Shown: positions 1 through 28,912 of the stretch, piece by piece
Position numbering within the stretch: the stretch's first letter is position 1
Layout of the letters: the number at the start of each line of letters is the position of its first letter
Virus record (IMG/VR): IMGVR_UViG_3300033120_000868
Span: 1-64,000 of that record
DNA length: 64,000 nucleotides
Strand: one strand, 5' to 3'
Source of the DNA: a virus
Lineage: Duplodnaviria; Caudoviricetes
Notes under the pieces: model-generated
Told to the model about the DNA's origin: nothing
Databases searched by the model: none
The model's input: the letters and a program-made list of their open reading frames with translations, nothing else
Translations under genes and position numbers: made by a program

Positions 1-139
1 TTATAACATCGGTTTTGCTCTATTTCGGTTTAGTGCTTAACCAATGTTCGGTTTGTATTTGTTAATTTTGTTTTTAAATCTAATTTTTTGGCTTACTTTT
101 CCGCAACAAAGCAAAGCCGAGAACCGTTATGTGTAATGC
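1..139 (+). mobile_element. attC-like hairpin recombination site 1 (left end truncated by window)
   Basis: TATAAC-A-TCGGTTTTGCT ... AGCAAAGCCGA-GAACC-GTTATGT imperfect inverted repeat; GTT core at 126-128. Confidence 0.75.
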
Positions 140-141
140 TA

Positions 142-396
142 TTAACCTTTGCTTTTAGAATTATTACGTGTTAAATTAGACAAGTAATAAGCACAAGTAA
201 CAACTGTTAGCCATAATGCAAAGTTCCACATATCATAAGATATTTTATCAAAAAATATTTCAATTGGATTTATAGCTTTTAAATGCCATCCTTCATATAT
301 TAGAAAGAATATTGTTTCTAATAACCAAACAAAAGTTCCTCCAATCCAAAAAATTTTTGCTAATTTCCAAATAGTTTTCAGTTCTTTATTTTTCAT
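142..396 (-). CDS. cassette-borne small membrane protein (2 TM)
   Basis: ORF between sites 1 and 2 with two hydrophobic helices; start taken at ATG 396. Confidence 0.7.
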   Translation of the reverse strand: MKNKELKTIWKLAKIFWIGGTFVWLLETIFFLIYEGWHLKAINPIEIFFDKISYDMWNFALWLTVVTCAYYLSNLTRNNSKSKG

Positions 397-412
397 TTTA
401 TAATTATTTAAA

Positions 413-556
413 GCACTACACATAACAGCATATTACCGCTATGGCTTTGCTTTGTTTTATCCGAAATGTGTCGGCTCACTTAATTTTTGTTTTTTTTTGT
501 TATCTTTTTGCTTTAATACGCCACATCGTTAATATGCGAAACGTTAGCGGTAATGC
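413..556 (+). mobile_element. attC-like hairpin recombination site 2
   Basis: GCACTACACATAAC-A-GCATATTACCGCTATGGC ... GCCACATCGTTAATATGC-GAAAC-GTTAGCGGTAATGC. Confidence 0.8.
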
Positions 557-750
557 TTTGATAAATACTTTTCGACAATATCTATCATTTGTAATTCGTC
601 ATTGTATATATCGTAAAATCCATCAACATCTTCTAAATGTGGTCTGCTGGTTAATTTTTTAACTATTTCTTTAGCGTGGTAATTAGCACTAACCATAACA
701 CCAGTTTTGCAAGATTGCTTGTTTTGTGATTTTTTGGAAACTTTAGTCAT
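544..750 (-). CDS. cassette-associated hypothetical protein
   Basis: 68-aa ORF that starts inside the loop of site 3 and stops at the G|TTA core of site 2. Confidence 0.6.
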   Translation of the reverse strand: MTKVSKKSQNKQSCKTGVMVSANYHAKEIVKKLTSRPHLEDVDGFYDIYNDELQMIDIVEKYLSKHYR

Positions 751-833
751 AATTTTAAGTGTATTTTGTATTTGTTAATTTTAGGTTTTTAGTTCGCAAC
801 CTCGCAAAGCCAAAAATCGTTATAGCAAATGCT
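686..833 (+). mobile_element. attC-like hairpin recombination site 3
   Basis: GCACTAACCATAAC-ACCAGTTTTGCAAGATTGC ... GCAACCTCGCAAAGCC-AAAAATC-GTTATAGCAAATGCT. Confidence 0.8.
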
Positions 834-1020
834 AGAAATCAATATCCGTTACAATAAATGTTTCATTACAATCTTCGCAAGTAATTTCTATATCAATTCC
901 AATTGCTCTGTGGTCTTCTTCCATGTGGTCTTTAACTTCATCAAAAATGTCTAACCCATATCCGCAATTAGGACATGTACATAATACCTCAATGAATGTT
1001 GATGCTTTTACTTCTTTCAT
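832..1020 (-). CDS. cassette-borne zinc-ribbon protein
   Basis: CPNC ... CEDC motif; start at ATG 1020. Confidence 0.7.
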   Translation of the reverse strand: MKEVKASTFIEVLCTCPNCGYGLDIFDEVKDHMEEDHRAIGIDIEITCEDCNETFIVTDIDF

Positions 1021-1033
1021 TTTGTTTAATTTT

Positions 1034-1210
1034 TTAAGCACTTGCTATAACACCAGTTTGTTGCAATTGCAAGTTTTGGTTATTTTCAGCAATCTTTAGT
1101 GCTTTAATTGTATCGGCAACTAATTTTTTACCTGTTGTGGTAAGTGAATCGGTAAGTTTCCAATCAAATTTGTCGTGTAATATCTTAAGAACTTCTTCGT
1201 AATGTTTCAT
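1034..1210 (-). CDS. hypothetical protein (58 aa, not in ORF track)
   Basis: MKHYEEVLKILHDKFDW...QTGVIASA; C-terminus is encoded by the half site. Confidence 0.65.
   Translation of the reverse strand: MKHYEEVLKILHDKFDWKLTDSLTTTGKKLVADTIKALKIAENNQNLQLQQTGVIASA
1037..1075 (+). mobile_element. attC-like half site (left arm only)
   Basis: AGCACTTGCTATAAC-ACCAGTTTG resembles the left arm of site 3; no matching right arm seen. Confidence 0.6.
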
Positions 1211-21839: not shown

Positions 21840-22547
21840 TTAAAAAGGCAAATCATCGTGAGGAGCTTCTTTTACATTTGTTGCTGGCTGAAATGCTTCA
21901 GCAGGTGTAGCTATAGGAATCTTAGGAGCTTCTGTATTTACTTGTGACTGAGCTGTTTGTCCGTTTTGGAACTTAGCTTGAACCTCTTGTAACTTACCAT
22001 AGAAAAACTCTGTCTGTGGAGACCAATCCCAAGTTTTATCTCCCGCAACAATCTTTTCAATAGGAGCTGGAATTTCATTATAAGGAATAAATCCTGTTGA
22101 AGCTCCTTTACCATTATCTCCTAATCGGTTAACGTAATTAATATAAATATTTAAGTTTTTATACTCTTTTCCATTTTTACCTGTTGTTGTAGTTGTTTTA
22201 GTAGATAAAGTAACTTCTTCATTTAAATCCATTCCTACTAAAGCTGAAAGTAAAGCTCTTGCTTCATCTGTGTACCCCCCTTTAGTGTTTTTTAAAGGAA
22301 CTGAAACTTTATTAGAAACATCTCCATCTACTAAAGATAATTCCATAAATTTTAAAGTTTTTCCGTCGTATTGTACTTCTTTTACATCGAAGTATTTTGG
22401 CATACCTTTGATAGAATCGTGATACTGATGATAAGTTTTTTTACCTTCTGTTCCATAAGATACTTCTTCATATCCTTGTGTTGGTTGTTTTTCTTTAAGG
22501 TATAATTTACCTTTTCCTGAGCTAATGCTAAAATTGTTGTACGTCAT
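21840..22547 (-). CDS. ssb: putative single-stranded DNA-binding protein
   Basis: beta-rich core, Q/A/P-rich linker and C-terminal DDLPF tip. Confidence 0.7.
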   Translation of the reverse strand: MTYNNFSISSGKGKLYLKEKQPTQGYEEVSYGTEGKKTYHQYHDSIKGMPKYFDVKEVQYDGKTLKFMELSLVDGDVSNKVSVPLKNTKGGYTDEARALLSALVGMDLNEEVTLSTKTTTTTGKNGKEYKNLNIYINYVNRLGDNGKGASTGFIPYNEIPAPIEKIVAGDKTWDWSPQTEFFYGKLQEVQAKFQNGQTAQSQVNTEAPKIPIATPAEAFQPATNVKEAPHDDLPF

Positions 22548-22828: not shown

Positions 22829-23311
22829 TTATTTTTTCGCGAAAAAGTTAGAAAAACGGAATTTTAATCTATCCCACCAACTCATAGTTAACATATAAAT
22901 CATAAAATTAATATGTTCAACTGTTTCTTCTACATGTACTGACATTCCATTTTTAAGAATAATAATAGAACCAATCTCTTGAGTATCTGTAACATCTATA
23001 ATATTTTTAAGAGGAACTAAATAATCTAAAAATTCATATTCAAGTTCTTCAGGAGCAAGATTCATGTAACCATTTTCGTCGATTTCTGAACTTGGACTAG
23101 TTTTGTAAAATTCATCTTCCTCTTGCGCAAACCAATCAGGTACTTTTTCATCTCCTAAAATAGTTTCCCAATCAGCTCTACTTCTTCCTTTTTCGTCGCG
23201 AAAAACAGATTGAGAAGAAGGTAAATTTTGCTTCTCTAAAGCTTCATCAATTCTTTTTTGACCTTCCTCAGAAGGAACTGTAACTACAGCGGTTAAATAT
23301 AGTCTCTTCAA
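22829..23311 (-). CDS. hypothetical protein
   Basis: 160-aa ORF downstream of the promoter at 23347. Confidence 0.7.
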   Translation of the reverse strand: MKRLYLTAVVTVPSEEGQKRIDEALEKQNLPSSQSVFRDEKGRSRADWETILGDEKVPDWFAQEEDEFYKTSPSSEIDENGYMNLAPEELEYEFLDYLVPLKNIIDVTDTQEIGSIIILKNGMSVHVEETVEHINFMIYMLTMSWWDRLKFRFSNFFAKK

Positions 23312-23394
23312 AATTTATTAATATTTTATTGTTTTTAATTATAATGCAAATATACTGCTTTTATTTGAATTGTGCAAGTATTTAAGATAATTTT

Positions 23395-23532
23395 AACGTT
23401 TTGTGGCTTTGCTTAGTGGCGAGGAATAAGCACTGCCGTTAATAAATTTTTACTGTTTTTAGTTTCTCGCCGAAACTTTTCTGATAAATCCTGAACTTCG
23501 CCATTGAGCAAAACCGCTGTTGTACCTTCGTT
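23395..23532 (-). mobile_element. attC-like site A
   Basis: minus strand: AGGTACAAC-AGC-GGTTTTGCTCAATGGCGA ... TCGCCACTAAGCAAAGCC-ACAAAAC-GTT. Confidence 0.8.
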
Positions 23533-23597
23533 GTTTTTTCACGCTTCCGCTTTTCAAATTTAGTTTATTTTTTGTAAGTTTGGTAAAAATTTTACTT

Positions 23598-23966
23598 ATG
23601 AAATTTTACACACAAGAAGAGTTTAATACTATAGACAATAACGCTAAAAATTCTTTCAAAGCAGAAAGTAACAAACAATTAAAGCTATTTTCGGATTTTA
23701 TAAAAAATCTTGAAACAGAATCAATAGAACCATTAGAAAAAGTTAACAACGCTTTTTTGGAAAAAGAAAAAATAGAATATGATTTAAAAGATTTTATTTA
23801 TATTAATTATCCAAAAACAGAAGAAGTTTTTATAAATGGTTTTGTTTATTACACAGTAGAAACTGTAATCTTCTTTAATCTTATGGTCGACTCTTTTGGC
23901 GAAACTCGTAAAGAACTTGAACGTCTGTATCAAGGCTTTTTTGAGAAAAATTTTCCGCAAGAATAA
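23598..23966 (+). CDS. cassette A plus-strand hypothetical protein
   Basis: TAAGTTTG promoter element at 23575, then AAAATTTTACTT-ATG. Confidence 0.65.
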   Translation: MKFYTQEEFNTIDNNAKNSFKAESNKQLKLFSDFIKNLETESIEPLEKVNNAFLEKEKIEYDLKDFIYINYPKTEEVFINGFVYYTVETVIFFNLMVDSFGETRKELERLYQGFFEKNFPQE

Positions 23967-24108
23967 GTTCCATAAGTTTTGCTTCTTTCAACATAGTTTC
24001 TAAAAATTGTACATTTCCAAGTGGTTCTTTTACTTTGTCTTTAACTTTTGTATACAAAGCTGTTAAGTAATTCCAATTCATTAAGTCTGACTGTTCTTTG
24101 TCTGTCAT
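23881..24108 (-). CDS. cassette A minus-strand hypothetical protein
   Basis: 75-aa ORF starting just after the crossover of site B. Confidence 0.55.
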   Translation of the reverse strand: MTDKEQSDLMNWNYLTALYTKVKDKVKEPLGNVQFLETMLKEAKLMELILAENFSQKSLDTDVQVLYEFRQKSRP

Positions 24109-24140
24109 TTTTTACGTCGTTTTTTACAACGTTATACTAC

Positions 24141-24290
24141 AATGAGGTACAACGTTTTGTGGCTTGTAAAAGTTGCGTGCAAGTACAAACCGTTATTTTT
24201 AATTTTTTCTCTGCCGAATCCACGCAAGAAACGGACTTTCAATTTAGCCTTTAACAGCAATTTTTACAAACCGCTGTTAGCAGTAGTATT
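24141..24290 (-). mobile_element. attC-like site B
   Basis: minus strand: AATACTACTGCTAAC-AGC-GGTTTGTAAAAATTGC ... GCAACTTTTACAAGCC-ACAAAAC-GTTGTACCTCATT. Confidence 0.82.
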
Positions 24291-24339
24291 TTTGTAAAGT
24301 TAAATATTTTCTACTATCTTTGGTCAAAATTTTTTACTT

Positions 24340-24624
24340 ATGTCTGAAGATAACTTCTTTTCTAATATAATTATACCTGATTTAACTGAAATAACATTAA
24401 GAGATTTTAAAAAAGTTTTAACTCTTATTGACACGTCTTTAATTCTGTATAAAAAAGATGATTTAAGTATGACTAAACAAGAAAAAATAGATTCTTATAA
24501 AGCATATTGTAGAAAATACTTAGAAAAAGAATTTGAAAATTTAGTTTACGATGATAAAGTAATATTGGATAAGTTTTTCAATATGCACGGAACTAAAGCT
24601 ATTCAGGAACATTTAGAAGATTGA
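24340..24624 (+). CDS. cassette B plus-strand hypothetical protein
   Basis: TTTG-N20-TATCTTTG promoter (24291-24322), then AAAATTTTTTACTT-ATG. Confidence 0.65.
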   Translation: MSEDNFFSNIIIPDLTEITLRDFKKVLTLIDTSLILYKKDDLSMTKQEKIDSYKAYCRKYLEKEFENLVYDDKVILDKFFNMHGTKAIQEHLED

Positions 24625-24907
24625 GAAATCTGCTTTTTATATCTCTACCTAAATCTCTTGTCTTAACAGTTAATACAGGAGAAAGCATTTCTCGTATGTT
24701 TTTTTCATTCCCTTCTGCAATATATTGTCTTGCAAAATTAATGTAACTTTCGTCTTTTAAAAGATTGCTATAATTATCATATTCAAATCTTAAATAATTA
24801 GAAATATATTCTAACAACTCTTCTGTTTTTTCTTTTGATTCTTCTGAAAGAGTATGGACTTCACTATTAAATTCATCTAATAGTATTTTTAGATTCTCTG
24901 ATACCAT
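24599..24907 (-). CDS. cassette B minus-strand hypothetical protein
   Basis: 102-aa ORF starting just after the crossover of site C. Confidence 0.65.
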   Translation of the reverse strand: MVSENLKILLDEFNSEVHTLSEESKEKTEELLEYISNYLRFEYDNYSNLLKDESYINFARQYIAEGNEKNIREMLSPVLTVKTRDLGRDIKSRFLNLLNVPE

Positions 24908-24934
24908 AATATTTTTCAGCAGTTTAACGTCTTT

Positions 24935-25074
24935 AATATTACTGCTAACGTTTAGCTTGTAGCAGGTGTTAATATATTTACTGCCTTCAGCTTATTAATA
25001 ATTAATTTAGTTTTTCTTGTAGCTTCCAAACTCTCCCAAGCCTAACACTTGCTATAAATAAGTGTTATAATTTT
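24935..25074 (-). mobile_element. attC-like site C (promoter-proximal)
   Basis: minus strand: AAAATTATAAC-ACTTATTTATAGCAAGTGTTA ... TAACACCTGCTACAAGCTAAAC-GTTAGCAGTAATATT; TACATTTG promoter at 25081-25088. Confidence 0.75.
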
Positions 25075-25127
25075 ATTTTACAAATGTACGAATAATATTT
25101 TAATCATGCAACTTTATTAAGATTTAT

Positions 25128-26096
25128 TTAACTTTTTAATTGGTAGTTTATCATCATCATATTATCCGAGATAGCTTCTAAATGTCCAAATTGTCTTCCA
25201 TCATCTTCATATCTTCCTTCTAATACTTCCAATAAATGTCTTAATGTTGCCTGTTTTAAGTCTTCAATACCTTTAGGAGTCATAGGTTTTTTCCAATTCC
25301 ATAGGTCATACTTACTAACTTTTTTATTAGAAGCCATTCGTTCAGCCATTTGAGTAATAAATCCCCAATCTAACTCATAAAATAATTTTCCTGCTGTCTC
25401 TTTATAAGCTGTTTGTGTTTCTTTTGCATCAATTTTAATTAAATTAGAATCGCTATCAAAGTAAAGGTTTTCTCCTGATTCACTTACTACAGATGCTTGA
25501 AAATGTTCTATGATATCCTTTTCTCCTCTGTTGCTGTTTGTAATTACGTCGTCTTTATATTGTTCTAATTTATTAATGTATTTTTGTAATCCATTATGTG
25601 TTGATGATGGTCTGTTTATTCCTTCTAAATCTCCTGCAATTTCTTTATGTGTTTCTCCTGATTTACTTTTGTGTCGAGTAGAAGTGTAAGTATCTGTTAA
25701 TTTTAACTCTTTTTTACAACTTCCATCGCAAAAACATTGAGTAGAACATTTACCTAACATCTCATCTAAGAAGAAAGGAGTTACTGTTCTTGAATAAGGT
25801 TGAGTTATGTTTTTTAAAGTTTTTTCTACTTTACAACTACCATCACAAAAACATTGTGGAGAACATCTATTTCTTTTTCCTGCTTCTGCAAAAGATTCTG
25901 TAATTCTTTGTTTTTTATTTTCCGCGAAAAAAGAATTAAGAACAGATTTTTCGTTCACCAACAAATCAACCAAAGGAAATATAATCTCATTATTAGGGAC
26001 AGTATTTCTCTTTAATTCTTCAATATGTTTTGCTAATTGTTCTTCTGAATCAATTCTGTACTTTTTTAAGTAATCTTTAATTTGTTCGTGTGTCAT
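25128..26096 (-). CDS. dATP/dGTP diphosphohydrolase-like (DUF5664-like) domain fused to two CxxxCxCDGSC repeats
   Basis: C-terminal K..YEL.W......RM..NK..KY..WNWKK....A.LRHL......D....HL..I..N.M pattern. Confidence 0.7.
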   Translation of the reverse strand: MTHEQIKDYLKKYRIDSEEQLAKHIEELKRNTVPNNEIIFPLVDLLVNEKSVLNSFFAENKKQRITESFAEAGKRNRCSPQCFCDGSCKVEKTLKNITQPYSRTVTPFFLDEMLGKCSTQCFCDGSCKKELKLTDTYTSTRHKSKSGETHKEIAGDLEGINRPSSTHNGLQKYINKLEQYKDDVITNSNRGEKDIIEHFQASVVSESGENLYFDSDSNLIKIDAKETQTAYKETAGKLFYELDWGFITQMAERMASNKKVSKYDLWNWKKPMTPKGIEDLKQATLRHLLEVLEGRYEDDGRQFGHLEAISDNMMMINYQLKS

Positions 26097-26369: not shown

Positions 26370-27134
26370 TTAAAGTTCAATATAGTTAAATCTACTTTTA
26401 TCTAATTCAAAAAACTTACCTTGTCTTTTTAATATTTTTAAATAATTATCTGTTATATCATTAATTATTTTTCTACGCATTTGATGAACTCTATCATCTA
26501 ATATAGCAATACCAACACCTTCAACTCCACTCATACTCTCTAAAAAGTCGTTTAACCCTGATTTCATACCTAAATCACTTTGAATTGCATCAGCATTCAC
26601 AAATAATTTAGAAGACTCAGGTAAACGAGTAACATAACTAATAGCTTCATGTGCTGTCATATTTTGAGCCTCGCTTAAAATAATTACTGAATGCTCAGGA
26701 AAAGTATTACCGCGTTGAAAACCTATATGTTCAAAAGTAACTTTAGATTTAATAGTATTTGCGTGTTCTTTACCTACTATTTTATCTATAGCATCATAAA
26801 AACTTTTAAGATAAGGGTCAAATTTTTCATCTAATCCAGGTAGAAATCCAACAGACTTACCTAATTCAACTATTGGCTTAGTAATAACAATCCTTTCAAA
26901 TTCTTTATTTTTAATACCATCAATAGCTCTAAACATTTGAACAAAATCTTTTGAACATCCTGCTTTAGCTAAAACTATAGAAATATCATAAGACCTTAAA
27001 AAATTAGCAACAGGTTTTTGGTGAGGTTTTAGTTCTACTGCCTCTTTTGTTGTTCTACTAGCTGTTAATCCGTGTTCTGCAATTTTTGATTGTTTCTTAA
27101 CTTCTCTTTTTGGTGGTGATTTCTTTTGTGTCAT
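26370..27134 (-). CDS. phoH: PhoH-like protein
   Basis: RIVITKPIVE...GFLPG..EKFDPY, RG.TF, EAQN.T and TR......D..QSDL motifs. Confidence 0.92.
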   Translation of the reverse strand: MTQKKSPPKREVKKQSKIAEHGLTASRTTKEAVELKPHQKPVANFLRSYDISIVLAKAGCSKDFVQMFRAIDGIKNKEFERIVITKPIVELGKSVGFLPGLDEKFDPYLKSFYDAIDKIVGKEHANTIKSKVTFEHIGFQRGNTFPEHSVIILSEAQNMTAHEAISYVTRLPESSKLFVNADAIQSDLGMKSGLNDFLESMSGVEGVGIAILDDRVHQMRRKIINDITDNYLKILKRQGKFFELDKSRFNYIEL

Positions 27135-27910: not shown

Positions 27911-28912
27911 TTAGAATTTCTCTTTACATAAAGTTACAATCTCTAAACATAACTCAGGATTATCTCTTAGTAAGTCTGTAACTGTGTCTATACCTTGTCC
28001 TAATTTTGTAGTGTCATAAGAATACCAACTTCCTGCTACTTTAATGACTCCTAAATCAATAGCATTATTTACAATATCTCTTTCTATATCAAACCCCATT
28101 TTATTATCATAAGGTAAACTAAATTTTACACCTCTGTTTCCTGATAATTTATCTTTTTTAATTTCAACTCTAACATCTTGACCTATAATTTTTTTATCTT
28201 TATCAAAAATATTACCTCTTGTTAAATTTAACATCTGACTTGAAAAGTCTAAAATTGCTCTTCCTCCTGGTGCTTTTAAAGGTTCGTATACGGCATCTTT
28301 ACCAATATTGTCATACAAATGGTTTGTAACAATTAAAGCAGCTTTTGATTTATAAATTTTACCCATAGAACGGCGGAAAAACTTTTTATATGCTCTTGCT
28401 TGAGCTCCCATTTGTTGTTCTTCCATAGTAGATTGATACTCTGCTTTTGGAGCTAATGAGTCAAAACCATCAAAAATAACAATATCGCAAACATTGCAAA
28501 GGTCTTCTACCATTTCTGCTCCTTCTTCTAGATAAGTAGGTTGTAAAATATGAATACGTTCTTTCTCTATTCCAAAGTATTTATCAATCCATAAATAAGA
28601 AGAATCTGTCCAATTAAATTCATTATCACAAAATCCAATAACTTTATCTTCGTTTACACCTGCAATAGCTAAAGCTAAAGAAGTCTTACCACAAGAAGCA
28701 AAAGCATTATATGTAGTTATTTTTCCATAAGCAGGTGCTCCACCTAAATACCTATCTAGAGACAACAATGGACTTTTTAGCCTCTCTACTGTTGTGTCAA
28801 TATCCTCTAATGATTTTGGAGCTTCAAAAATTTGTTCTGTTTTTTTGTATTTAGCATACATCTTATCAATTGCTGATAATTCTCCGTCTTCTGTTTTTTC
28901 TTTTTTTGCCAT
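27911..28912 (-). CDS. recA: RecA/UvsX-like recombinase
   Basis: SLD..LGG...GKI, ASCGKTS Walker A, MG.QAR, PGGRA..FSS and GSWYSY...KLGQG. Confidence 0.95.
   Translation of the reverse strand: MAKKEKTEDGELSAIDKMYAKYKKTEQIFEAPKSLEDIDTTVERLKSPLLSLDRYLGGAPAYGKITTYNAFASCGKTSLALAIAGVNEDKVIGFCDNEFNWTDSSYLWIDKYFGIEKERIHILQPTYLEEGAEMVEDLCNVCDIVIFDGFDSLAPKAEYQSTMEEQQMGAQARAYKKFFRRSMGKIYKSKAALIVTNHLYDNIGKDAVYEPLKAPGGRAILDFSSQMLNLTRGNIFDKDKKIIGQDVRVEIKKDKLSGNRGVKFSLPYDNKMGFDIERDIVNNAIDLGVIKVAGSWYSYDTTKLGQGIDTVTDLLRDNPELCLEIVTLCKEKF

Follow-up and report, generated by a model that had tools for sequence, protein, structure and literature searches.

A likely integrase-less, integron-like cassette platform in an intergenic region of a Flavobacterium-type phage

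Integrons are the classic bacterial gene-capture device, and the CALINs reported from phages have until now, as far as the relevant passages of Qi et al. go (2023, Front Microbiol, PMC9892861), been short predicted arrays. In those passages the arrays were predicted with canonical attC models, contain at least two predicted attC sites each (three in TJE1) and were tested with IntI1, and a bacterial integrase was proposed to act in trans; one of the cases is a Flavobacteriaceae phage, Polaribacter phage P12002L. Bacteroidota are listed in one paper among the clades previously found without integrons. The locus described here is like the phage CALINs in that arrays of hairpin sites separate small genes in a phage without an integrase. 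It differs from them in its distinct site family, in an associated recombinase that lacks the IntI insertion and in a conserved resident site with a putative promoter, and its relatives hold different cassettes at the same junctions, a turnover that does not appear in the CALIN passages of Qi et al. (PMC9892861).

With the sedentary Vibrio superintegron (VCR-type attC), the locus shares species-typical, mutually similar imperfect hairpins of ~125 nt with AAC...GTT ends, complementary cassette ends and a direct orientation; toxin-antitoxin-type cassettes occur in both, as do cassettes with a promoter of their own, a putative one in the present locus, where better folding of one strand would be a further parallel. 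Unlike sedentary integrons, it has no integrase in cis, and its acceptor is a hairpin-type site and not attI; flank complementarity extends 11-15 nt past the GTT and includes a fixed mismatch, a one-sided bulge of 4 nt forms the spacer, and the host enzyme is 573-580 aa long, with a ~290-aa N-terminal extension and without the IntI insertion. In T4-type phages, PeSLs (promoter-early stem-loops), which are short repeats of a promoter and a stem-loop, reportedly flank small accessory genes in the variable regions of these large lytic phages and have been connected with modular shuffling. They are ~50-70 bp long and act through homology, whereas the present hairpins, at ~125 nt, are common to recombinase-adjacent host arrays, and the cassettes have their own inverted ends at AAC|GTT. 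The pdif/Xer modules of Acinetobacter plasmids rely on a host-supplied Xer-type recombinase and 28-bp sites in alternating orientation with the same arms; they too are discrete gene modules bounded by recombinase sites, but those of the present locus are long, directly oriented hairpins whose outer arms are specific to the cassette. Against this background, we consider it likely that positions 23372-25105 of the window form an integrase-less, integron-like cassette platform in a phage intergenic region.

The locus, its sites and its genes

The window is the whole stretch of DNA analysed, 64,000 nt, and comprises positions 1 to 64,000 of the IMG/VR record IMGVR_UViG_3300033120_000868, a Flavobacterium-type phage record of 143 kb. 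The cassette locus lies between two conserved genes, f322 and f160. On the minus strand it reads from a TAnnTTTG box through site C, cassette 2 with site B and cassette 1 with site A to a terminal GTTAAAATT stub; the cassette ends are inverted complements, and the junctions read AAC|GTT. The sequences quoted in the preliminary description were all found in place when read on the minus strand, and we agree with it that this array is oriented opposite to array 1 of the same phage. A blastn search of 7 kb around the locus against INPHARED returned no match. The features, with related loci given by L numbers, are as follows.

25128..26096, minus strand: f322, upstream backbone gene with a weak match to a dATP/dGTP diphosphohydrolase N-terminal domain
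23372..25105, minus strand: whole module (promoter copy, acceptor site C, two cassettes, terminal GTTAAAATT stub), not present in L266
25095..25110, minus strand: TTGCATGATTAAAATA, upstream copy of an imperfect direct repeat that brackets the module, partner of TTGCACAATTCAAATA
25081..25088, minus strand: TACATTTG, candidate promoter, Bacteroidota-type -7 box (TAnnTTTG), 9 nt before AATTATAAC
24935..25072 (core from AAC at 24947 to GTT at 25066), plus strand: site C with flanks, resident acceptor, a divergent family member
24153..24948, minus strand: cassette 2 unit, 796 bp, running from TTAGCAG... through two genes and site B to the G of the next GTT
24599..24907, minus strand: c2minus, top-strand gene, 102 aa, with homologues P0001-P0004 and 88% identity in L267/L268
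24340..24624, plus strand: c2plus, bottom-strand gene, 94 aa, with its own putative TATCTTTG box at 24315-24322
24141..24290 (core 24151-24278), plus strand: site B with flanks, own site of cassette 2, E 8.8e-21 in a family HMM whose training set includes it
23397..24152, minus strand: cassette 1 unit, 756 bp, running from TTGTACC... through two genes and site A to the G of GTTAAAATT
23881..24108, minus strand: c1minus, top-strand gene, 75 aa, 61-92% amino acid identity and an intact frame in 12 loci
23598..23966, plus strand: c1plus, bottom-strand gene, 122 aa, with its own putative TAAGTTTG box at 23575-23582
23389..23532 (core 23395-23521), plus strand: site A with flanks, own site of cassette 1, E 2.4e-20 in the same HMM, which was trained on it as well
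23362..23377, minus strand: TTGCACAATTCAAATA, downstream copy of the bracketing repeat, followed by the f160 promoter box TATATTTG at 23354 to 23347
22829..23311, minus strand: f160, downstream backbone gene without assigned function

The three hairpin sites, each ~125 nt, thus enclose the two cassettes. Sites A and B belong to a family for which the HMM was trained on 12 sites of the phage genome; full-length matches in the 143-kb genome fall on sites A and B and on array 1, and nowhere else. The family also makes up a ~24-site array that spans the ends of the phage record, all sites within an array share one orientation, and family members are frequent across IMG/VR viral contigs. The family hairpin is imperfect, with invariant AAC...GTT ends, a one-sided 4-nt bulge and an AT-rich loop, and it has a covarying stem of 17 bp in which a C bulge and a G.T wobble are fixed. 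Across 70 sites, pairing is seen in 96.3% of the stem cells, compared with 71% after shuffling and 37-48% for slid controls, and compensatory changes occur at 15 of the 17 stem pairs; all 17 pairs form in sites A and B. The wobble, present in 69 of the 70, speaks for the strand that runs antisense to the cassette genes of hosts. All 70 sites have AAC(G) and (T)GTT without variation, and A, B and C have them too. Site cores of 120-128 nt lie within the integron attC criterion of ~57-141 bp, with the RYYY/RRRY parts of the boxes matching loosely, while the irregularities (the 4-nt one-sided bulge, the C bulge and a mismatch at position 11 of the flanks) are unlike canonical attC extrahelical bases. 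The outer stems are divided between cassettes, and the loops are long; we therefore used covariation in place of the folding of linear sites. Folded singly, these scored z of -0.2 to -1.5, no better than shuffles. A search against Rfam returned tRNA only and no site match.

Site C does not match the family HMM and has no more than AACGTTT and TGTT in common with sites A and B. Automatic alignment to the family misaligned it, and we used manual pairing and a mini-hairpin fold instead. By this manual reading of the sequence, site C keeps the family layout (C opposite A, the G.T wobble and the AAC/GTT ends), and the fold gives a stem of ~24 bp with an asymmetric internal loop; its plus strand would be the folding (bottom) strand. 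Homologues that are 89-90% identical sit at the same place in L267, L268 and L269. The acceptor next to the candidate promoter is of the hairpin type and not an attI. Site A is 94.5% identical to a site of the Flavobacterium ichthyis chromosomal array and 96.9% identical to the last site of L268, and at its outer end, AATTTTAAC, it contains the backbone half of the resident site. Site B accompanies cassette 2 in L253 and L268, but only its arms do so in L252, where the loop differs.

The TACATTTG box is a candidate promoter that would read into site C and the top-strand cassette genes. The preliminary description had placed a promoter just upstream of site C, and its position is kept in L268 and L269, where a homologous box, TACCTTTG, stands at the same 9-nt gap from ATTATAAC; the TAnnTTTG motif by itself is only ~1.2-1.5x enriched genome-wide. 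All of the promoter boxes lie outside the hairpin sites. A point absent from the preliminary description is that each cassette carries a second gene on the opposite strand with its own putative promoter. In our model, c2minus and c1minus would be read from the upstream promoter, and c2plus and c1plus from the cassette-internal ones.

Within each cassette the two genes converge, with an overlap of 26 nt between c2plus and c2minus and of 86 nt between c1plus and c1minus. No cassette protein has a confident Pfam or PHROG match or a match in the Atlas, and comparison of c1plus with c2plus and of c1minus with c2minus revealed no homology. c2minus weakly matches a PHROG without known function, and its fold model is of low confidence; c2plus has 98.9% amino acid identity in L267/L268 and is called as a gene in L252. 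For c1plus there are 13 homologues besides the window sequence (57-93% identity), one of them named from a Flavobacterium MAG, and its promoter box is kept in L254, L256, L260 and L264. The c1plus model depicts a three-helix bundle with a small hairpin (pLDDT 92, confident in only one of five models), for which no PDB fold match was found.

Cassette ends and turnover among related phages

It had been proposed that the cassette ends pair within each unit, and the flanks bear this out. GTTAGCAGTAATATT (24949 to 24935) is complementary to AATACTACTGCTAAC (24290 to 24276), GTTGTACCTCATT (24153 to 24141) is complementary to AACGAAGGTACAAC (23532 to 23519) with one additional base, and AATTATAAC (25072 to 25064) is complementary to GTTAAAATT (23397 to 23389) at 8 of 9 positions. 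The three cognate flank pairs score 7, 10 and 8 matches out of 11, versus 2-5 for the six non-cognate pairs. The same pattern holds family-wide, with a mean of 7.4 out of 11 in 129 adjacent site pairs from 96 records and 3.7 when family flanks are paired at random. A G/A mismatch stands at position 11 in 49 well-matched adjacent site pairs of the family, and a 14-nt flank test gave 10/11 in 40 pairs and 11/11 in none. The B/C pair likewise has the G/A mismatch at position 11, and the A/B pair has it too, shifted by its extra base. When the circle-junction sites are rebuilt, they fold at -40 and -52 kcal/mol, compared with -28 and -34 in the linear context.

Both cassettes also turn up in other places, again flanked by members of this site family. 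Cassette 2 is found with the same ends and other neighbours in L252 and L268, and its right-hand part in L251, with homology stopping at AAC|GTT; in the two metagenome contigs, L252 and L251, its neighbours are other than those in the window. It abuts site C in the window and in L268 and canonical sites in L252 and L251, and it is 95.7% identical to its L268 counterpart, against ~81% for the backbone. We had considered a polarity model in which a cassette's own site lies on the high-coordinate side, with the crossover at ...CT|GTT; this was rejected because ...CTGCTAAC is followed by a different site in each of the window, L252 and L251 and because site B stays with cassette 2. The cassette 1 gene pair occurs in 12 loci (L254-L265). 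In L254-L259 and L264, at least, it is flanked on either side by family sites, and in L260-L263 and L265 a full site is seen on one side only; its contexts differ in L256 and L260-L265, and in L254 and L256 the site interior is a different one.

f322 has syntenic homologues in L266, L267, L268, L269 and L007. The f160 homologue follows directly in L007 and L266, and it comes after a cassette array in L268, L269 and L254-L259. L268 shares the candidate promoter, site C, cassette 2 and GTTAAAATT with the window and carries two other cassettes, L269 shares the candidate promoter, site C and GTTAAAATT and carries a single, different cassette, and the arrays of L254-L259 sit at the same backbone junction with varying content, including SocA_Panacea toxin-antitoxin-type cassettes in L254, L257 and L258. 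L266, the closest relative, has ~98% identical flanks and lacks all 1,734 bp of the module, with its promoter copy and site C: in a global alignment, 25189 to 25106 (83/84) runs straight into 23371 to 23325 (45/47). The search for empty or alternative alleles suggested earlier thus yielded other cassettes in L268 and L269, while the exact empty allele, with site C joined to 23397, was not found in the relatives examined. Homology switches at AAC|GTT in L251 and L252, between L254 and L256, and among L268, L269 and the window, at a resolution set by the shared AACGTT bases; the breakpoints predicted at G|TT were thereby recovered, at C|GTT. The cassettes are discrete units bounded at AAC|GTT, and the content of the locus differs between related phages. 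Since these phages hold different cassettes at the same spot, they appear to trade small genes in an integron-like manner without an integrase of their own. The interior of site A sits with a different cassette in L268. Cassettes and site interiors are thus not always linked, which suggests that exchange at both site ends, or general recombination via the conserved arms, takes place as well; another reading is that a few widespread subtypes of site each come with many cassettes.

Recombinase and competing explanations

The preliminary description had the phage lacking its own integrase, and searches of the 143-kb genome for tyrosine (PF00589) and serine (PF00239) recombinases and by tblastn with the host enzyme were all empty. 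In three Flavobacterium genomes, chromosomal arrays of the family lie 0.01-2 kb downstream of a gene for an IntI/Xer-like tyrosine recombinase of 573-580 aa with the ~290-aa N-terminal extension, and their folding strand is antisense to the cassette genes. The best NCBIfam match of this enzyme is the integron integrase model (TIGR02249), at 207-209 bits and so below the cut-off of 265, and its best PDB match is VchIntIA (2a3v). That alignment falls into two stretches, with VchIntIA 178-246 represented by only 27 residues of the host enzyme, which is without ~40 aa of the IntI-specific insertion. One gene for such an enzyme lies at L248:3585-5327, and homologous recombinases adjoin arrays in L056, L098, L102, L139 and L144. 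Of the 151 Flavobacteriaceae genomes sampled, only 2 contained the N-terminal domain, and the enzyme may therefore be missing from many hosts.

A host recombinase probably serves the platform in trans. In the mechanism we propose, cassettes would enter and leave as circles via site-specific recombination of the folded strand, which is the plus strand of the window, and the infected Flavobacterium would provide the recombinase. The cassette 2 circle would be expected to carry the junction of ...CTGCTAAC with the site B interior, and the cassette 1 circle that of ...GGTACAAC with the site A interior. The idea of a promoter plus landing pad through which the phage samples cassettes without its own integrase is supported by these comparisons; the host-enzyme step and transcription from the box are our inferences.

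An unlikely but more serious alternative is that the locus is a captured host-type array, now inert, and that its differences between phages reflect general or short-homology recombination via the site arms and further short repeats, PeSL-like as in T4-type phages. The phage is without a recombinase but has a RecA-like ORF (27911-28912) that matches the RecA_N gene of L266; imperfect direct repeats bracket the module, with L266 carrying a hybrid version, TTGCATAATTCAAATA; and the loose linkage of site interiors to cassettes would fit as well. However, cassette 2 switches from site C to canonical sites exactly at AAC|GTT, where there is too little homology for such a process, and the own inverted ends and G/A mismatch on every cassette are the footprint expected of recombination between circles and hairpin sites. 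That the phage itself recombines, via an unrecognised enzyme neither of the Pfam tyrosine nor of the serine type, seems to us distinctly improbable. Sites of the family abound in viral contigs of IMG/VR, the N-terminal domain of the host enzyme is rare in our sample and most genes of the phage are without known function, all of which would suit a phage enzyme, but the PF00589, PF00239 and tblastn searches gave no candidate in the 143-kb genome, and the array-adjacent enzyme, where present, is always an IntI-like tyrosine recombinase.

The strong covariation of the stems and the intergenic position of the sites could also be read as those of RNA elements with a regulatory or structural role, for instance terminators or processing sites, that lie among ordinary phage genes and take no part in recombination. 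We give this reading very little credence, because the flanks pair across cassettes and not inside one site, the folding strand in host arrays is antisense to the cassette genes, the sites lack an Rfam match and adjoin a recombinase in hosts, and the content of the locus varies in relatives with breaks at AAC|GTT. Terminal-inverted-repeat transposons or MITEs were rejected because the ends differ per cassette and the sites are common to recombinase-linked arrays; IS200/IS605-type hairpin elements were considered and set aside.

Meaning for phages and hosts

The locus ties a phage platform to a non-canonical host recombinase and its site family. Both the family and its recombinase, which is without the IntI insertion, appear to be undescribed so far. 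Related phages with different cassettes at the same junctions are direct comparative evidence of turnover, and the site family could serve the metagenome mining of small phage accessory genes. On balance we are evenly divided about a broader proposal, in which Flavobacteriales and their phages share an undescribed integron-like system of ~125-nt hairpin sites and a long IntI/Xer-like recombinase without the IntI insertion, and lytic phages keep integrase-less landing pads, each a promoter with a resident site, at fixed positions of the genome and swap cassettes with other phages and with hosts via the enzyme of the infected cell. The small accessory genes swapped in this way would probably be of the counter-defence or toxin-antitoxin-like kind. 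Should exchange be driven by the host enzyme, phages and hosts would draw on one cassette pool, and such a shared pool would move defence and counter-defence genes both ways.

Array 2 and its cassettes

The source record, an IMG/VR virus genome whose initial 64 kb make up the window (143,493 bp, complete by CheckV, G+C ∼29%), uses the minus strand as the coding strand for genes at 1-34 kb of the window, where a gene-poor 1.8-kb gap separates two backbone genes, f322 and f160. The gap holds three elements of 120-128 nt, sites A, B, and C, with cassette 1 between A and B and cassette 2 between B and C. All of the sequences quoted for this region in the preliminary description were found, read on the minus strand.

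Features of array 2, with array 1 for orientation (window coordinates unless stated)
25128-26096, minus: f322, backbone gene upstream of array 2
24947-25066, plus: site C, AACG start, TGTT end
24948 to 24153, minus: cassette 2, 796 bp, crossover at G|TT
24151-24278, plus: site B, AACG start, TGTT end
24152 to 23397, minus: cassette 1, 756 bp, crossover at G|TT
23395-23521, plus: site A, AACG start, TGTT end
22829-23311, minus: f160, backbone gene downstream of array 2
Cassette 2, top strand: c2minus, 102 aa; bottom strand: c2plus, 94 aa
Cassette 1, top strand: c1minus, 75 aa; bottom strand: c1plus, 122 aa
Genome 134,828-143,420 into window 5-1,101, minus: array 1, ∼24 sites by HMM

Both cassettes contain two convergent genes with overlapping 3' ends, a layout common in the cassettes of related arrays. 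Homologues exist for all four genes, and family and fold searches gave no assignable function for any of the four proteins. A TAnnTTTG box lies 15-17 nt upstream of c2plus and of c1plus, the latter kept even in a homologue with 57% identity; no such box was found within ∼100 nt upstream of c2minus or c1minus on their own strands. We note that related phage arrays include SocA_Panacea (antitoxin-type) genes (L254:7096-7491, L257:7096-7665, L258:6946-7413), each adjoined by a second small gene, which look like toxin-antitoxin cassettes.

A structured site family

The outer flanks of sites A, B, and C pair across the intervening DNA and not inside one site. Cognate flanks (A right with B left, B right with C left, C right with A left) match at 7, 10, and 8 of 11 positions, compared with 2-5 of 11 for the six non-cognate combinations and a mean of 3.7 for random flank pairs across the family, which bears out the earlier proposal that the ends pair within each cassette. 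A G/A mismatch sits at position 11 from GTT in 49 adjacent site pairs with well-matched flanks, and a 14-nt flank test gave 40 pairs at 10/11 and none at 11/11. In array 2, this mismatch is at position 11 in the B/C pair and offset by one base in the A/B pair. When the junction sites of putative cassette circles are rebuilt, they form long continuous hairpins (-40 and -52 kcal/mol, versus -28 and -34 kcal/mol for the linear arrangement).

The site fold appears to be selected on one strand. A 17-nt pattern scan followed by an HMM trained on 12 sites of the phage genome recovered 234 full-length family sites from 96 records, comprising many IMG/VR contigs together with Flavobacterium, Kaistella, Chryseobacterium, and Cloacibacterium genomes. 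Across 70 aligned sites, 96.3% of the cells of a 17-bp stem are paired, versus 71% after column shuffling and 37-48% for slid controls, and 15 of the 17 stem pairs show compensatory changes. An unpaired C opposite A is constant, and a G.T wobble occupies one stem position in 69/70 sites; because this wobble is fixed, probably only one strand folds well, which for array 2 would be the window plus strand. All 17 pairs form in sites A and B. Site C gives no match with the family HMM; by manual pairing it keeps the family layout (AAC, stem, C opposite A, G.T wobble, TGTT), with a 5' spacer shorter by 3-4 nt, and folds into a hairpin of ∼24 bp.

Full-length HMM matches in the phage genome are confined to sites A and B and to array 1, and the minus-strand matches of the latter confirm that the two arrays are oppositely oriented. 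Array 1 spans both record ends. The final ∼340 bp (143154-143493) recur at window ∼554-893, and since the copies part immediately past ...CCGCTAACGTTT, at a site boundary, cassette-level heterogeneity or duplication is suggested to have broken the assembly here. The array 1 genes run opposite to those of host arrays relative to their sites, and several ORFs start in the AT-rich site loop and read through the right arm (window 697-821 and genome 136157-136284, 135609-135735, and 137099-137225), so that unrelated proteins carry similar N-terminal peptides.

Cassette turnover among related phages

Comparison of relatives shows that the cassettes are discrete units with breakpoints at AAC|GTT and that their contents vary at a conserved acceptor. 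Close relatives were retrieved via f322 homologues. In contigs L268 and L267 (f322 63% identical to that of the window), a TACCTTTG box is followed after 9 nt by ATTATAAC and a site C with 90% identity; then come cassette 2, site B, two different cassettes, a site sharing 97% identity with site A, GTTAAAATT, and f160. Contig L269 has the box and site C as in L268, followed by one different cassette (GTTGTATGTCATT ... CCATACAAC) that has a divergent site of its own; GTTAAAATT and f160 come next. Homology among the three alleles switches exactly at C|GTT; both the alternative cassettes and the G|TT breakpoints anticipated in the preliminary description were found. Between the window and L268, nucleotide identity is 95.7% in the cassette 2 body, 92.6% and 96.7% in the interiors of sites B and A, 89.6% in site C, and about 80-82% in the f160 gene and both backbone spacers. 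The excess of cassette over backbone identity indicates that cassette 2 arrived recently and horizontally next to the acceptor site in the window and L268 lineages.

The anticipated empty allele, with site C joined directly to 23397, was not found; one cassette-free relative lacks site C as well. Contig L266 (GroEL 97% identical, flanks ∼98% at the nucleotide level) is without all of window 23372-25105, and its junction reads TTGCAT|AATTCAAATA. In the window, the module is bracketed by imperfect direct repeats, TTGCATGATTAAAATA and TTGCACAATTCAAATA, each followed at equal spacing by a TAnnTTTG box. Both promoter regions (window 25064-25110 ahead of site C, 23325-23377 ahead of f160) start with TTGCAY at an equal distance from the box, and the module-free relative has one copy; by sequence, the one preceding site C resembles a diverged duplicate of the f160 one. 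Whether L266 lost the module or other lineages gained it, the event lies at a TTGCA microhomology in this duplicated region, not at a site. In the distant relative L007, f322 and f160 homologues stand 2 bp apart, site-free.

The cassettes also occur in other contexts. Contig L252 has cassette 2 with unchanged ends and two different neighbors; L251 has the right-hand portion (window 24730-24952, terminating in ...CTGCTAAC) followed by three more family sites, and the left-hand part of the cassette differs. Because ...CTGCTAAC is succeeded by three different sites in the window, L252, and L251, and site B moves with cassette 2, crossover is placed at the AACG end (G|TT, minus strand). The convergent gene pair of cassette 1 recurs in 12 further loci (57-93% amino acid identity); family sites flank it on either side in L254-L259 and L264 at least. 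The L254-L259 arrays have a matching backbone junction (GATTTTAAC|GTTTTG) beside an f160 homologue only 43% identical; among contigs that share left-flank gene order and coordinates, cassettes past the first vary, and the cassette 1 homologue is sixth in L256. Site interiors do not always keep to one cassette. Many cassettes may carry the same common site subtypes, in the manner of Vibrio VCRs; alternatively, exchange may proceed at the opposite end of the site too, or through the arms by general recombination.

Other local differences were observed. L269 carries a solitary family site (L269:8548-8674, 92% identity with site A) immediately downstream of GroEL, and the equivalent position in the window yielded no site. 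Downstream of the module, the second gene (235 aa, 21840-22547) appears to have been replaced locally, because it is 34% identical to L266:7469-8194 and its neighbors are 91-100% identical to theirs. The window PhoH (26370-27134, 254 aa) is without the intein or homing-endonuclease domains present in the PhoH and helicase genes of relatives (L267:3986-5761 and L267:1-1387).

Recombinase, host, and known systems

Searches of the phage genome for PF00589, for PF00239, and by tblastn with the host enzyme all came back empty. This enzyme is a tyrosine recombinase whose gene lies 0.01-2 kb upstream of site arrays in F. celericrescens, F. piscinae, and F. ichthyis, on one strand with the cassette genes in all three genomes. 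Its length (L248:3585-5327, L249:3077-4798) is 573-580 aa in the first two species; a stop codon interrupts the F. ichthyis gene. It contains PF13495 and PF00589 domains and a ∼290-aa N-terminal extension with no Pfam match. A search with this extension found it in only 2 of the 151 Flavobacteriaceae genomes sampled (the query's own and one weak partial match). Homologous recombinases adjoin arrays in five additional loci. Three of these, the IMG/VR contigs L056, L098, and L102, are classed as viral and combine site arrays with an IntI-like recombinase homologue; they could be phages equipped with a full system or misclassified host fragments. Over its whole length, site A shares 94.5% identity with one site of the F. 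ichthyis chromosomal array, and Flavobacterium with recombinase-linked sites are the likely hosts.

The attC bottom strand folds in canonical integrons. Host arrays resemble them in that the folding strand is antisense to the cassette gene, and they run gene then site; applied to array 2, this rule makes the window minus strand its top strand, in agreement with the earlier reading. For the host recombinase, integron integrase scores best among NCBIfam models (207-209 bits, cut-off 265), and VchIntIA is the best PDB match, in an alignment that skips ∼40 aa at the IntI-specific insertion. Classification as a canonical integron/attC array was rejected, since this defining insertion is absent from the associated recombinase.

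Integron-like arrays in phages are already known as a general idea: PMC9892861 describes CALINs in virulent phages, including a Polaribacter phage, with some attC sites that recombine with IntI1. A recent paper (10.1101/2024.07.02.601686) names Bacteroidota as one of the clades in which integrons had previously not been found. Compared with the published phage CALINs, the site family here is distinct in its flank complementarity (11-15 nt with a fixed mismatch), one-sided bulge, and fixed wobble; the recombinase linked to it has a long N-terminal domain and no IntI insertion; acceptor site and promoter box are kept at one constant position in the phages; and cassette turnover is backed by direct comparison of relatives.

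We propose that cassette circles would recombine via the folded plus strand with site C or another site, that the host enzyme would catalyze this during infection, and that the box at 25088 to 25081 would drive c2minus and c1minus transcription through sites B and A. By analogy, array 2 may work like a canonical integron, with putative cassette exchange.
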